A stretch of DNA of 51,816 nucleotides from a virus (Duplodnaviria > Heunggongvirae > Uroviricota > Caudoviricetes). Shown one piece after another: positions 4,973 to 14,760 of the stretch (within the stretch, counting starts at the first letter, position 1; each line of letters opens with the position of its first letter). The stretch lies in the IMG/VR virus record IMGVR_UViG_2627854066_000007. One strand, given 5' to 3'. The translations under genes and the position numbers were made by a program. Below the pieces are notes generated by a model. That model made no database searches. It had not been told where the DNA came from and worked only from the letters and a program-made list of their open reading frames with translations.

Positions 4973-5224
4973 TCAAGTAAGATGACGTCTTGGTCTCGCT
5001 GATGCCTGGCGCTCAATCCAGCGATCAATTTCTTCCAGGTTGTAAAAGCATGGACTGTTATCCCATGGCATACTGTCATGAGCGACATGCTTATATTCCC
5101 TTCCTTCCATAAACGATTTTTCCCGGGCCTTTTTTAACGTACCTTTTTTTATTCCTTTCAGCGCAATTAACTGCTCTTCGGATACCCATTTGCCGGGAGA
5201 GACAATCATGATTACTTCGCTCAT
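4973..5224 (-). CDS. xis: Excisionase-like small protein
   Basis: 83-aa basic ORF immediately upstream of int on the same strand; assignment is by position and size. Confidence 0.55.
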   Translation of the reverse strand: MSEVIMIVSPGKWVSEEQLIALKGIKKGTLKKAREKSFMEGREYKHVAHDSMPWDNSPCFYNLEEIDRWIERQASARPRRHLT

Positions 5225-5296
5225 CGATTTCTTTATCTCTTACATCAGACGAGCGCCGGTTGCAGAATACCAGTCACAACCGGCGACAGTTGAACA

Positions 5297-7768
5297 TTAA
5301 GAATCAGCCTGACTCGGGATCAGTTTTTGCCAGATAACTGAAACGTATTTTGCCTGGTAACGGGCGTCATCAAGTGCATTATGGCGCTCACCTTCGAATG
5401 GAATAGCCGTTCTGGCATCGAAGTCTATGGCTTTCCCCAGCTCAACGATTGTGCGTACATCGCGATCGTTGTAGTAACGCCACGGGCAGGGGATCCCCTG
5501 CCGTTCGTATGAACGGCGCAAAATCGTGTTGTCGAAGTTGGCTCCATTTCCCCAAACCTGAACAAAAAATTCACTGGAGTTTTCGTCGATAAATTCCCGC
5601 AATTGTAACAGTGCATCATCTAACGGGATTTCATCGGTCATAATGGCAGATTGCGCTTCGCGTGATTGCTTAAGCCACCATTTAATGGTGTCCCGATCAA
5701 TGACTCCGCCAGCAGTTTCCAGATCGATAGTCTTACTAAATTCCGGTCCCATATCTCCGGTTTGCGGATCGAAAAATATTGCACCTATTGAGATGATCGG
5801 GGCATCAGGATTTTTTCCCATGGTTTCAAGGTCGATCATTAGATGGTCACACGTCCTGCTGGTGGATGTGATTTCGTGATGACCGTTCACCTTAATTGAG
5901 TGATCTGCCGTCTCGCCAGTTTCATTATCGCTATTGTGATGCTGATTGCCGCCAGTGTTCTCCTTGTGTGGATGTTCAGCGCCTTCCATTTCCTCCGGAT
6001 CATCTTCCTGAACTTCAACCTGATACTCTTCATCGAATGTTTCTTGGTATGTTGCGTCGCCCATCACCGCGCCACAATCAGGGCAGTTGCCGCCGCCGGT
6101 CTGACCGCAGGCGGTGCAGACTTTTTCCACTTCCTGTTGCGCCACTGGTTCAGGCTGTTTCGTTTCTGGCTCGTTTTGTAACGCATTTGTGCTGTTTTGT
6201 TCCGCTTTTTGGTAGTTCCGTTCCGATTCATGCTGGTTCTGGTTCACAGAATCGCGGGTCTGGATCCCCTTAACCCATTTCGGATCATTCGGGTCACTAA
6301 TCCCTTCAACAAATTCACCACGTGATGCAGCAAGCAACTTATCGGCGTCAGGCTGGCTGATATTGGCTGCCTGCATAATTTTGTTTACTTCGTCAGCGGT
6401 AACTTTTATCGGCTCTGGTTGTTCTGAATCTTCAGCGGTATCTACATTTTGCGGTAAGCCCGTGTATGTGCCATTTTTTCGGGCAAAATATTCTTCTTTT
6501 GTGATTTCAGTGGCGCCAGCAGCCAGTGCCTTATCCAGACCAGAAAGTTTGTTTGCGCGACCGTATTTTTCTCCGTCCTTATCTGCGAAGAGGAAATAGA
6601 ACGGCCCCTCACGCTCTACAGATGGTTCAGCTTCCGGCGCGGTTTCATTTTTTGGGATATCAGATACCTCAGTTTCCACTGCATCAGTTTGTGTTTCTGA
6701 TGACTGGAGAACATCAACAGTGCCCAGGTCTGTTTCTTCATTCTCAAACACGCCCTTTGTCGTCAGGTATTCGCAGATATATTTGTTCAGTGCTATGGGA
6801 TCTTTGTGAATGTCGATCGGACGCTCACGGACAAGGCCAAAAATAGTCTGGCGGTCGTAGCGAAGGGCATCAGGCTGTTTGCGCATTGATGCCGAGATAC
6901 GCTTCCAGTCTTCGCGGTCGTTGTCGATAACTTCTTTTTTTGCCCAGCGATGGATGCTGCCGTCAATGTTTCCGGCATCCACATCACCAGGCCAGAGAGC
7001 GTAGGCCAGTTCGTCATCCAGTGTTTTCCATGTCTGCTTGTATTCGCGATGAATGGCAGCAATGACCGGGCTGATTTTTCCTGTTGAATTTTCAGTGTAC
7101 TGTTGATTGGCTCTGGCGCGGGCGAGATCAACAACAGACGTGTATTTTCCGGTTTCCTTGCGTTCACCTTCGCGACGTTTTTTCCAGATGCGCATCTCTG
7201 CCTGAATTTCGGGCCATTTAGCACCAGGAATACATTTATGCTTAACCCACCCAATGGCGTGCAACTTAAGCTCCGGATACATGGCGTTAACTTCTGGCAT
7301 TTTCATCAACGCTTCAACGATATGTCCGTCGAATGTTGCCATGTCTTCCTGCAACAATTCCTGTGCGCTAATAACCATATCAACGGTGATGTTTTCACAT
7401 GTGTCGAACTTAACCATGACAGCGTTCTGTACTTCAGGGGCCAGCTTGTCAAAAGTGACGTTCATCGGATCGGATTCAGTCTCAACCGGGACAAAAGAAG
7501 CAGACTCCTCATCCCAGCGGTTTTCCTGCATATATTCAGCATCCCATGAATCGAGGGCAGGGCGGGGTATGCCAGGTTTATCCTCGCAGACAATAAATTT
7601 ATAAGCGCAGTCCTGAGCAGCCGGATAATGTTCCAGGAACTGCCAGTGAAATTTTGCTCGAGCACGGCGTTCGTCGCCAGCTTCAATGGCTGTGGCTACA
7701 GCCACAGCGCCTTCTTCCCTTGTTGCCAGTTCGTCAGGAATAGCGGCGCAAATAAAGACTTTACTCAT
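5297..7768 (-). CDS. Phage exonuclease with C-terminal DEDDh-type 3'-5' exonuclease domain
   Basis: 823-aa ORF; C-terminal ~200 aa carry DLET, NGANFD and HNALDDA motifs consistent with the DnaQ-like DEDDh fold; a long acidic low-complexity linker precedes the domain. Confidence 0.75.
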   Translation of the reverse strand: MSKVFICAAIPDELATREEGAVAVATAIEAGDERRARAKFHWQFLEHYPAAQDCAYKFIVCEDKPGIPRPALDSWDAEYMQENRWDEESASFVPVETESDPMNVTFDKLAPEVQNAVMVKFDTCENITVDMVISAQELLQEDMATFDGHIVEALMKMPEVNAMYPELKLHAIGWVKHKCIPGAKWPEIQAEMRIWKKRREGERKETGKYTSVVDLARARANQQYTENSTGKISPVIAAIHREYKQTWKTLDDELAYALWPGDVDAGNIDGSIHRWAKKEVIDNDREDWKRISASMRKQPDALRYDRQTIFGLVRERPIDIHKDPIALNKYICEYLTTKGVFENEETDLGTVDVLQSSETQTDAVETEVSDIPKNETAPEAEPSVEREGPFYFLFADKDGEKYGRANKLSGLDKALAAGATEITKEEYFARKNGTYTGLPQNVDTAEDSEQPEPIKVTADEVNKIMQAANISQPDADKLLAASRGEFVEGISDPNDPKWVKGIQTRDSVNQNQHESERNYQKAEQNSTNALQNEPETKQPEPVAQQEVEKVCTACGQTGGGNCPDCGAVMGDATYQETFDEEYQVEVQEDDPEEMEGAEHPHKENTGGNQHHNSDNETGETADHSIKVNGHHEITSTSRTCDHLMIDLETMGKNPDAPIISIGAIFFDPQTGDMGPEFSKTIDLETAGGVIDRDTIKWWLKQSREAQSAIMTDEIPLDDALLQLREFIDENSSEFFVQVWGNGANFDNTILRRSYERQGIPCPWRYYNDRDVRTIVELGKAIDFDARTAIPFEGERHNALDDARYQAKYVSVIWQKLIPSQADS

Positions 7769-12216: not shown

Positions 12217-12749
12217 TGTTAGATATTTTAGACGTTACTAGATTAAAAAGCATTAGTTCAGGAGTGAATTGACATTCTCATTTTTCATGGCACAGGGTAG
12301 ATCTGGCGTGGTTGTCCGCTTTGTGCCAACAGCGGACGTTACTAACGAAACTGTGAGTTAAAAACGGGAGCTGGTCACCTCCATCCCGCGAAATGGAATT
12401 CAAAAATGCCCTCATGTACGGTACTTCTAGTCTGATGTGAGCATTTTCGTGGATTTTTTCGAGCCACTCCAACGAATGATTACATTCAGTTTCGGGCACT
12501 AAAACGTCATAAATCCGCAAGTTGAGGAGTAGCGATCAGCCAATTGGTTAAAAAACAGCTTTAATTCCCTTTTTCAAGCAGGCTCCTTGTCGCACGTCTG
12601 GTGCATCCAATTCATTTCAGTTACCCTGATGCCATACTGGCACGGACTAGCTCTCTTAATTGGCGCTGGTTTGTTAACCTTGTCCGCTGTCGGGTCTTTG
12701 TAAGTTGTAATTCCTAAACTAGCATAATTTTATTATAAGGCCTCTTACT

Positions 12750-13775
12750 ATGCACATTTTATCTGTTTCAAAAAAGGAAGTTGGAAGAGCTGGGGATAGA
12801 TTAGTTTCTCAGTTTGGTACAGGTGAAAAATATAAAGAGGAAGATGTACAAATTCTTCATGAGTGGAGGATGTTGCATTTATATCCTTTAAGTAAAATAC
12901 AATTTTATATGGAAAGAGAGGCTATTTCCTTAAACAAAAATGCGTTACTATCCTCTAGAATTAAGAGGATGCCTTCCATTGTTACTAAGCTTTCTAGATT
13001 TCCTGATATGAAGTTAAATAAGATGCAGGATCTTGGTGGGTGCCGGGCTATTTTAAATAATCTGGATCAAGTGTATGATTTAGTTAATAAAATAAAATCA
13101 TCTAAATTCTCACATGAACTAGTTAGAATGGATGATTACATGATAGACGTGAAAGATTCTGGTTATAGAAGCTTTCATATGGTCTATTCATTCCAAAATA
13201 AAAAATTTCCATCTTTAAATGGGTTGCGCATTGAAATGCAAATAAGAACAGCTATTCAACATAGCTGGGCTACAGCAGTTGAAATGGTTGGTTTGTTTCG
13301 AAAGGAATCATTGAAATCTGGTTTTGGTGATGCAAGATGGCTTAGGTTTTTTGAATTGGTATCAGAGCTTTTTTATAAACTTGAGTATGAAAAAGAACCA
13401 TCTGGGAGTTATATAAAAATATCAGAAGAATTAAGTTATTTATCCGTCGAGTTGAATGTTTTCGATATATTAGCTGCTTACAATGCCGTAGTTAGCCATA
13501 TTGAGGGTAGCAAAAAATATGATAAAGGACTTTGCATAATTGTTGTTGATACCATAAAGCGGAATATAAATATAAAGAGCTTCGAAAATCACAATCATGC
13601 GAAGGCGGCAGAAGCTTATGTCGAGTCTGAAAAATACTGCGCGGAAAATAAAGGCTGTGAAGTGGCTATGGTTTCTGTTAGTTCAATTAGTGAATTAAAA
13701 AATGCATATCCTGCTTACTTTTTAGATACGAAAACTTTTTTAAATTATCTCAGTAGGTATGTTTTTATAAAATAA
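12750..13775 (+). CDS. RelA/SpoT-like nucleotidyltransferase (small alarmone synthetase-like; candidate toxSAS/CapRel-type)
   Basis: 341-aa ORF carrying RSH synthetase motifs in order: R70-x-K72-x3-S76-x3-K80, D94-LGGCR99, G138-YRSFH143, E162-MQIRTAIQHSWA174; gene is strongly AT-rich versus flanks; ~120-aa C-terminal extension beyond the catalytic core. Confidence 0.8.
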   Translation: MHILSVSKKEVGRAGDRLVSQFGTGEKYKEEDVQILHEWRMLHLYPLSKIQFYMEREAISLNKNALLSSRIKRMPSIVTKLSRFPDMKLNKMQDLGGCRAILNNLDQVYDLVNKIKSSKFSHELVRMDDYMIDVKDSGYRSFHMVYSFQNKKFPSLNGLRIEMQIRTAIQHSWATAVEMVGLFRKESLKSGFGDARWLRFFELVSELFYKLEYEKEPSGSYIKISEELSYLSVELNVFDILAAYNAVVSHIEGSKKYDKGLCIIVVDTIKRNINIKSFENHNHAKAAEAYVESEKYCAENKGCEVAMVSVSSISELKNAYPAYFLDTKTFLNYLSRYVFIK

Positions 13776-14208
13776 AAAATGTTATCTGGAGTGGTCTGAA
13801 TTCTACTAACTTAGTTTTTTCAGACCGCTTCTGACCACAATGGCCTGTGAGGTTCTGCTGCTAGTCAACATAAAATAACAAAGCCGGCAGGTGGTGGTTG
13901 TTGTAAAGTTATTCAATGACATTCATGGAGGCTTAAGCGAATTATTTGTCCCTGGTCGGTATGGTGGCAACAGCTTGTTGCGAGAATTTGGCTAATTTGG
14001 ACTGACTTCCGCTCCTTGCTCAAAGCGGACTAGAAGGTTAGCTTGTGTCGGACTTTGCGTATTAAAAGAAGTGCTGGTGGTGACTAGTGGTTGAGCCCCA
14101 TTTCCACAGAAAAAATCAGAGAAACTATACCCAATAGTTGTATTGAATCACTGACGAGACAGCCTCATATTCATCAGGACTGGTGTACGTCCAATACAGG
14201 AGGTTGTG

Positions 14209-14298: not shown

Positions 14299-14509
14299 TT
14301 TCATATTGGCGAGGTAAAGGTAGTTAAGTAGAATGGCTGCGGGTGCTTGAGGCTATCTGCCTCGGGCATGAACACCAAAGGCAGATAGAGAAAAGCCCCA
14401 GTTAACATTACGCGTCCTGCAAGACGCTTAACATTAATCTGAGGCCAATTTCATGCTAGACACATGTAGGTTAGCCTCTTACGTGCCGGAAGGCAAGGAG
14501 AAGCAGGCT

Positions 14510-14665
14510 ATGAAGCAGCAAAAGGCGATGTTAATCGCCCTGATCGTCATCTGTTTAACCGTCATAGTGACGGCACTGGTAACGAGGAAAGACCTCTGCG
14601 AGGTACGAATCCGAACCGGCCAGACGGAGGTCGCTGTCTTCACAGCTTACGAACCTGAGGAGTAA
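14510..14665 (+). CDS. hok: Hok-family type I toxin
   Basis: 51-aa ORF MKQQKAMLIALIVICLTVIVTALVTRKDLCEVRIRTGQTEVAVFTAYEPEE, a canonical Hok/Gef sequence; in-frame upstream extension from 14453; structured leader upstream. Confidence 0.85.
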   Translation: MKQQKAMLIALIVICLTVIVTALVTRKDLCEVRIRTGQTEVAVFTAYEPEE

Positions 14666-14733
14666 GAGACCCGGCGAGGGAGAAATCCCTCGCCACCTCT
14701 GATGTGGCAGGCATCCTCAACGCACCCGCACTT

Positions 14734-14760
14734 AACCCGCTTCGGCGGGTTTTTGTTTTT
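14734..14760 (+). terminator. Rho-independent terminator downstream of hok
   Basis: GC-rich hairpin AACCCGCTTCGGCGGGTT followed by TTTTGTTTTT. Confidence 0.5.

Follow-up and report, generated by a model that had tools for sequence, protein, structure and literature searches.

A probable CapRel-family fused toxin-antitoxin gene in a mobile cassette of a Qin-type lambdoid prophage

The window analysed here, a stretch of 51,816 nucleotides recorded as a Caudoviricetes virus (IMG/VR record IMGVR_UViG_2627854066_000007), is a Qin-type lambdoid prophage that carries at positions 12750..13775 of the + strand a gene for a RelA/SpoT-type protein. This gene probably encodes a single-polypeptide toxin-antitoxin belonging to the CapRel family, at once sensor and effector of abortive infection; to this reading we assign a probability of about 0.8. 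Its basis is the homology to CapRelSJ46 of Salmonella phage SJ46, which extends over the full length of the protein and includes the match to the PADLOC family PDC-S33, together with the fold, the conservation of the mechanistic residues (catalytic and YXXY), purifying selection, the single-gene organisation with no partner gene, and the hotspot and mobile context of the locus. The first-pass annotation of this DNA, made from the letters alone, had proposed a fused, CapRel-type small alarmone synthetase-like toxin (toxSAS) at this place, and these results bear the proposal out. What is said below of enzymatic activity, tRNA substrate, autoinhibition, trigger identity and defence phenotype is transferred by analogy from CapRelSJ46 and is worded accordingly. 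The parts of the predicted system are as follows, with the evidence for each in brackets (ORF, open reading frame; ZFD, zinc-finger domain; dN/dS, ratio of non-synonymous to synonymous substitution rates).

12750..13775, + strand: probable CapRel-family fused toxSAS toxin-antitoxin gene (sequence, profile and fold matches; dN/dS 0.039 against the plasmid copy)
12936..13301, + strand: predicted toxSYNTH catalytic core, residues 63–184, with R70 and R99 at the ATP adenine site and the G-loop Y139 (Pfam RelA_SpoT; 41% identity to SJ46)
13332..13487, + strand: predicted anchor helices α7–α9, residues 195–246 (AlphaFold helices; 25% identity to SJ46; aligns to the C-terminal part of PhRel gp29)
13488..13682, + strand: predicted pseudo-ZFD, the sensor/antitoxin domain, residues 247–311 (secondary structure of the model matching the published topology; Foldseek with the C-terminal region)
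13707..13718, + strand: putative YXXY autoinhibition motif, Y320-P321-A322-Y323 (aligned to SJ46 Y352/Y355)
13731..13763, + strand: predicted C-terminal anchor helix, residues 328–338 (helix in the model; aligned to the SJ46 C-terminal helix)

The ORF starts with ATG and encodes 341 amino acids (aa), exactly the extent that had been assigned to it at first, and every motif position quoted at that time can be found in the translated sequence (R70/K72/S76/K80, D94-LGGCR99, G138-YRSFH143 and E162...A174). Its GC content of 0.326 against 0.496 for the window agrees with its earlier description as more AT-rich than its surroundings. Pfam recognized RelA_SpoT alone in the protein (residues 69–175, E = 4e-18) and found no hydrolase, TGS or ACT domains, which had likewise been called absent. 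The part of the protein that lies C-terminal to the synthetase core had been put at ~120 aa and in fact comprises ~155 aa (residues 185–341). The protein is deposited in RefSeq as WP_000547812.1 under the name 'RelA/SpoT domain-containing protein', and PHROGs place it in phrog_4773, to which that database assigns no function.

The relationship to CapRel is apparent in every comparison that takes in the whole chain. A phmmer search of the PDB returned the CapRelSJ46 entries 7ZTB and 9ERV as top matches (E = 2.6e-34), covering residues 6–338 of the query, and small alarmone synthetases matched residues ~67–177 only (E ~1e-10). Pairwise BLASTP aligned the protein with CapRelSJ46 at 28% identity (E = 5e-40). 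The profile built from the family alignment of 90 homologous sequences matched 7ZTB and 9ERV end to end (E = 9e-81, profile positions 5–343), its matches to the small alarmone synthetases (~1e-20) being limited to the core. The PADLOC model PDC-S33, listed there as a candidate family, is matched over the full length by the 341-aa protein (5e-119) and by CapRelSJ46 (7e-87); since both match it end to end, PDC-S33 is effectively the CapRel family. Relatives at least 57% identical to the protein were found in Pectobacterium, Serratia, Yersinia, Klebsiella variicola, Buttiauxella and Aeromonas. Four CapRels have been assayed, SJ46, Ebc, Kp and EcHT (PMC9712102), and the last three share family and architecture with the window protein; judged by sequence, the latter is a member of a subclade separate from all four. 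CapRelEbc and CapRelEcHT have an N-terminus of the SJ46 type and CapRelKp has the SJ46-type insertion. A closer relative among the assayed proteins was sought and none was retained, Kp and Ebc being as distant as SJ46 and the start of EcHT, compared by eye, being of the SJ46 type.

The AlphaFold2 model computed on the family alignment has a mean confidence (predicted local distance difference test, pLDDT) of 90.9 and a predicted template-modelling (TM) score (pTM) of 0.89. Beyond the synthetase core it consists of three helices (195–214, 219–234 and 237–246), followed by two long strands (260–267 and 272–278), a helix (283–299) and a further strand (303–310) in the pseudo-ZFD, then short helices near the YXXY segment and the terminal helix 328–338. 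In the published CapRel topology the anchors are followed by the pseudo-ZFD, a three-stranded sheet with a helix between its last two strands, and by a C-terminal extension (PMC9712102), and the secondary structure of the model agrees with all three elements. A Foldseek search of the PDB with the whole model, a check that the first-pass annotation had itself suggested, ranked the CapRel chains first (~350 columns, TM 0.68–0.69), with RelP and RelQ covering only the ~190 residues of the core. Residues 195–341 were also modelled alone (pLDDT 84.5), and with this fragment the only matches at E ≤ 0.001 were three CapRelSJ46 chains (E 1e-5 to 5e-5, TM 0.63–0.72, root mean square deviation (rmsd) 4–5 Å), the next match having an E value of ~0.1. 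Superposition of the whole protein on CapRel is poor (rmsd 10–11 Å), and the individual domains fit far better. Since the domains match and the global superposition is poor, the comparison fits a closed model set against open crystal structures, as reported for SJ46.

The residues on which the CapRelSJ46 mechanism depends could be located in the window protein, and their conservation across the 90 homologs is given below.

SJ46 R79, here R70: ATP adenine coordination; invariant in the 90 homologs
SJ46 R116, here R99: ATP adenine coordination; invariant in the 90 homologs
SJ46 Y155, here Y139: G-loop tyrosine; invariant in the 90 homologs
SJ46 A351, here A319: interface, identical; at least 90% conserved
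SJ46 Y352, here Y320: YXXY motif; kept in 87 of 90
SJ46 Y355, here Y323: YXXY motif; kept in 82 of 90
SJ46 A77, here S68: interface; column alternates A/S
SJ46 V338, here A306: interface; column alternates V/A
SJ46 L339, here M307: interface; column alternates L/M
SJ46 A341, here S309: interface; column alternates S/A

Most of the RelA/SpoT motif positions are invariant in this alignment, among them G138; P321 is conserved in all 90 homologs and F324 in at least 90%. Identity to SJ46 is highest in toxSYNTH (41%) and in the YXXY segment with the C-terminal helix (43%) and falls to 25% in the anchor helices and 18% in the pseudo-ZFD. Within the family the pseudo-ZFD is the most variable region and toxSYNTH the most conserved, the most distant group of homologs retaining 48% identity to the query in the latter and 20% in the former; the same pattern has been published for CapRel (PMC11578894).

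Among the known systems CapRelSJ46 (7ZTB, 9ERV; Zhang et al. 2022, PMC9712102) is the closest, a fused toxSAS on a single ORF with the same order of N-terminal helices, toxSYNTH, anchor helices, pseudo-ZFD, YXXY segment and C-terminal helix; it shares the ATP-site arginines, the G-loop tyrosine, YXXY, the PDC-S33 match and carriage by a temperate phage. It differs in length (373 against 341 aa) and in sequence, above all in the sensor, since the window protein has neither the ~9-residue insertion before DxGGCR nor the ~9-residue hairpin insertion of the pseudo-ZFD, and in its carrier, a P1-like phage in the case of SJ46 and a lambdoid Qin-type prophage here. The correspondence extends to PhRel/ATphRel of mycobacteriophage Phrann, where toxin and antitoxin are two separate genes (gp29 and gp30) in contrast with the one fused ORF of the window: the family profile matched the toxin gp29 along residues 1–245 of the query (probability 98%, E = 3e-14), and the 71-aa antitoxin gp30 aligned colinearly with residues 262–326, ending at the segment equivalent to YXXY.

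By analogy with CapRelSJ46, residues ~1–194 would form a RelA/SpoT-type pyrophosphokinase (toxSYNTH). In the uninfected cell the C-terminal module, made up of the anchors (195–246), the pseudo-ZFD (247–311) and the helix 328–338, would fold back on the active site, and in this closed state Y320-P-A-Y323 would be placed between R70 and R99, blocking the adenine pocket. Upon infection a new phage protein, or a complex of a phage protein with a host protein, would bind the variable surface of the pseudo-ZFD and anchors; this binding would keep the protein open, free the toxin and so abort the infection. The triggers described for other CapRels are diverse: SJ46 responds to the SECphi27/Bas major capsid protein and to Bas11 Gp54 (PMC9712102, PMC11578894), Ebc to T7 Gp0.4 in complex with FtsZ (PMC13423816) and EcHT to the Bas8 capsid protein (PMC9712102, PMC13423816), and in these other assayed CapRels the C-terminal domain sets the specificity (PMC9712102, PMC13423816). 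The sensing of phage capsid, which had been brought up for this gene at first, is true of SJ46 and is not to be assumed here. Since triggers differ and the sensor shares no more than 18% identity with its SJ46 counterpart, the trigger of the window protein is not inferable from these.

Several observations weigh against assigning the gene this function. Of the five published interface positions of SJ46, four (A77, V338, L339 and A341) are replaced, although conservatively, in the window protein. The putative closed state with YXXY at R70/R99 is deduced from differences in rmsd. The alignment with gp30 is weak (E = 1e-3, probability 21%). The assayed CapRelKp and CapRelEbc, compared by tblastn with the synthetic gene sequences of the PMC9712102 supplement as obtained by optical character recognition, show only ~28–38% identity to the window protein in the pieces that align. 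A search of the literature library turned up no paper mentioning WP_000547812.1 or PDC-S33, and no experiment on the protein or a close relative. Neither a consensus sigma-70 promoter in the + strand leader nor a consensus terminator in the + strand trailer of the cassette that holds the gene was found, and expression in the lysogen is therefore assumed. Finally, the sequence does not separate a tRNA substrate from a nucleotide one.

This last point gives room to the alternative that survives best, namely that the architecture and autoinhibition of CapRel hold and that the toxin pyrophosphorylates nucleotides, yielding (pp)pApp or (pp)pGpp and depleting ATP or GTP in the manner of FaRel, Tas1 and Pag1B. 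Enzymes of the toxSAS group do use either class of substrate (PMC9712102; PMC11782079; bioRxiv 10.64898/2026.04.06.716658), and the catalytic motifs common to RelQ and RelP, which make (p)ppGpp, are all present in the window protein. However, the full-length relatives of known activity are CapRels only, and these modify tRNA (PMC9712102); the next-best PDB matches after CapRel are weaker by 60 orders of magnitude; and the net-basic N-terminal domain (+9, against +12 in SJ46) fits the binding of nucleic acid, weak as this evidence is. A nucleotide substrate is judged unlikely.

The CapRel reading also supposes that sensor and toxin reside in one chain. In a two-gene toxSAS pair, or a sensor-effector pair resembling PANGU, a small partner would be encoded in the flanking 'non-coding' DNA. 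Such relatives exist, Phrann gp29/gp30 and PANGU among them, and there is space inside the cassette for a short gene in the ~435 bp leader and the ~215 bp trailer; on the minus strand an ORF of 80 aa (12278..12520) is open in both known copies of the cassette. Against this, comparison with six further homolog loci shows DNA similarity in the ORF alone, breaking off at both of its ends, and the neighbours differ in every context, no partner gene being common to the seven contexts examined:

1: the Qin-type prophage of the window
2: another E. coli prophage, with a 65%-identical homolog between Q and a holin gene
3: a Serratia island, beside dCTP-deaminase and radical-SAM genes
4: a Pectobacterium island, beside an AbiEii gene
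5–6: two metagenomic contigs
7: a Raoultella plasmid

The homolog of the second context (P0013, loci L007–L010) is a second E. coli member of the CapRel subclade and lies on the opposite strand in another type of lambdoid prophage. A 17-nt indel between the two cassette copies disrupts the + strand small ORFs of the leader, the minus-strand ORF has eight non-synonymous changes among its nine nucleotide differences, the small ORFs of the trailer are not conserved between the copies, and Pfam gave no match for the minus-strand leader ORF or for the trailer ORF examined. In addition, a domain equivalent to the antitoxin and the YXXY motif are already found inside the protein. The PANGU type I effector Pag1B (a GRel toxSAS) likewise acts against phages and has a C-terminal domain with a regulatory role (bioRxiv 10.64898/2026.04.06.716658), but that system is bicistronic, activated by a nucleoid-associated-protein sensor (Pag1A), makes pppGpp and has a C-terminal domain that is acidic and mimics DNA. 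The window gene has neither a partner nor a gene for a nucleoid-associated protein in its vicinity, and its product has a CapRel-like module and a C-terminus that is not acidic (net charges of its segments −4, 0 and +2). A second gene is thus highly improbable, and a small antitoxin hidden in the flanks was ruled out on the indel, the non-synonymous changes, the lack of a Pfam match and the variable neighbours, in line with the first-pass view that no convincing separate antitoxin ORF lies beside the gene on its own strand.

The flanks themselves are 533 bp upstream (12217–12749) and 734 bp downstream, to the hokD start at 14510. Their earlier description as ~0.5 and ~0.7 kb of non-coding DNA stands in that no genes are annotated in them, and has to be amended downstream, where part of the DNA belongs to the hok/sok RNA region. 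Rfam returned for the flanks the neighbouring sok/hok and sub-threshold matches only, with no family in the leader. By eye, possible weak expression signals can be seen at 12723–12728 (CATAAT) and 9–12 nt before the ATG (AAGG).

The gene is the centre of a cassette whose limits could be drawn from the comparison with a plasmid and with sister prophages.

12313..13992, no strand: mobile ~1.68-kb cassette of leader, gene and trailer (shared with the Raoultella plasmid; breakpoints of the sister prophages)
12340..12749, + strand: cassette leader, non-coding (~90% identical to the plasmid copy, 17-nt indel)
13776..13992, + strand: cassette trailer, non-coding (shared with the plasmid copy)
12314..12339, no strand: left boundary hairpin, inverted-repeat arm GTCCGCTTTGTGCCAACAGCGGACGT (inverted repeat; junction alignment)
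14005..14030, no strand: right boundary hairpin, the other inverted-repeat arm ACTTCCGCTCCTTGCTCAAAGCGGAC (inverted repeat; junction alignment)

Over 1700 columns the cassette (12313–13992) is 93% identical to the IncFII conjugative plasmid NZ_CP062917.1 of Raoultella terrigena, where the copy (4974–6673, locus L017) directly follows pifC and a P-loop NTPase gene that takes the position of pifA. On the F plasmid, PifA mediates T7 exclusion, and the pifC-adjacent location of the plasmid copy suggests a plasmid defence island. Sister prophages (loci L003–L006) share the backbone of the window up to 12337–12346 and again from 14005–14018, with different cargo between:

ATCC 25922: PDC-S39/DUF4209 protein (2e-102)
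strain WEC: PDC-S06 AAA ATPase (7e-72)
strain JE86-ST02: PD-T7-1 (E = 4.5e-145)

In K-12 Qin the equivalent position, immediately upstream of hokD, is occupied by relB-relE, as had been noted at first, with flxA and ydfV also in the slot, and K-12 homology to the window resumes only at 14496, within hokD. Because sister prophages carry alternative defence cargos there, the slot that has the DUF977 gene on one side and hokD on the other is a defence hotspot, and the location of the gene in it supports a defence role only indirectly. The flanks had been taken as the signature of an acquired moron, which is right for the cassette at 12313–13992 and not for the remainder, which is conserved prophage backbone. 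The gene would move as a self-contained unit of ~1.68 kb, settling in defence hotspots on prophages and plasmids.

A closer look at the junctions showed that the cassette is bracketed by an imperfect inverted repeat of 26 nt with arms 81% complementary (12314–12339 and 14005–14030), each arm being itself a hairpin of the form TCCGCT-10 nt-AGCGGA. The motif TCCGCT-N8–12-AGCGGA is found twice in the window, at these two boundary sites, against 0.01 occurrences expected. In sister prophages carrying other cargo, similarity to the window is lost immediately past the left hairpin and returns within the right one, and the homology to the Raoultella plasmid has its start precisely at the left hairpin. 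In K-12 Qin a single copy of the motif is present, between flxA and ydfW. Folded as RNA, the boundary hairpins gain nothing in energy over shuffled sequence (z −0.8 to −1.6). The hairpins may mark the recombination junction of the hotspot. It is a tentative and rather doubtful proposal that cassettes are swapped at these hairpins by recombination and that the pseudo-ZFD may sense a class of trigger new to CapRel, such as a non-capsid protein or a phage-host complex of the kind sensed by CapRelEbc.

The position of the gene bears as well on the view that it encodes a housekeeping small alarmone synthetase resembling RelQ or RelP, by which the prophage would modulate the (p)ppGpp of its host with no role as toxin or in defence. 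Some databases do label homologs as 'GTP pyrophosphokinase', and the top NCBIfam match is the GTP diphosphokinase YjbM model (E = 1.4e-15), but that match reaches 57.6 bits against a cut-off of 320 bits and covers residues 67–176 only. RelQ (YjbM) and RelP (YwaC) share with the window protein the RelA/SpoT synthetase fold and the catalytic motifs; they differ in being housekeeping enzymes of ~200–230 aa that make (p)ppGpp and have no antitoxin/sensor module, so that they match ~110–190 residues of the core. The structures of small alarmone synthetases cover that ~190-residue core only, whereas the 155-residue C-terminal module is CapRel-like, and the gene is located in a defence hotspot. There is very little likelihood that this view is the correct one.

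Between the window protein and its plasmid counterpart 6 of 341 residues differ, with dS 0.19, dN 0.007 and dN/dS 0.039, and owing to this low ratio the gene is considered to be under strong purifying selection. The weakest alternative, namely that the gene is decaying or inactive and no longer serves any function, could appeal to the rarity of the gene (42 of 5426 genomes) and to damaged or altered alleles (strain GPEC1258 has IS903B inserted in the 2.3-kb region, DAX4 retains no more than the final 164 nt of the gene, and the allele of APEC 102026, 99.8% identical, is longer by 2 nt; records NZ_CM142782.1, NZ_CP126343.1 and NZ_CP087290.1), yet it is scarcely credible for an ORF that is intact, folds confidently in the model, conserves all catalytic and regulatory residues and holds that dN/dS across ~4% nucleotide divergence.

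The prophage that carries the cassette is integrated between rspB and a truncated ydfJ, and in the record NZ_CP029164.1 it occupies about 3229597–3273400. It has genes for integrase, excisionase, exonuclease, dicB, repressors, replication, Q, lysis, terminase, portal, tail and fibre, besides a fusion of a ClpP-like protease with the major capsid protein, a lambda-like tail, Lom, ydfD, several cold-shock genes and gnsB. Having been called cryptic, it appears on the contrary to be complete, unlike the K-12 Qin remnant, given these structural, lysis and replication genes. The gene at 12750..13775 is found in 41–42 of 5426 complete E. coli genomes, at 99% identity or more and always in the same context; many of the carrier genomes come from poultry, and the prophage occurs chiefly in poultry-associated strains and clinical isolates of E. 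coli.

One further locus, outside the system, forms the right side of the hotspot.

14341..14665, + strand: hok/sok type I toxin-antitoxin locus (Rfam sok, Pfam HOK_GEF)

Rfam sok is matched over its full length at 14341–14515 (117 bits, E = 3e-27), and the Hok/Gef ORF, annotated as hokD, matches Pfam HOK_GEF (E = 3e-23). The hok/sok locus is complete in the window, while in K-12 hokD abuts relE instead. Between hokD and rem, close to the former, a match to the Hfq-binding small RNA isrK can be seen at 14674–14755, which at 25.7 bits stays below the gathering score of 50 (E = 0.0095).

The CapRel family is already well characterised and catalogued in defence databases, where the window gene counts as a candidate, and this gene is a new, divergent member of it that reveals no new mechanism; its chief interest lies in its trigger and in the hairpin-bounded cassette slot. 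The locus documents in Qin-type prophages a slot with at least five alternating defence or toxin-antitoxin cargos, and if recombination does take place at the hairpins, the slot between DUF977 and hokD would be a defined site of cassette swapping. CapRel serves as a model for the direct sensing of phage proteins by bacterial immune proteins, in which each assayed homolog has revealed a different trigger. The window protein represents an enterobacterial subclade with a strongly diverged sensor, and its trigger would extend the map that leads from sensor sequence to trigger.

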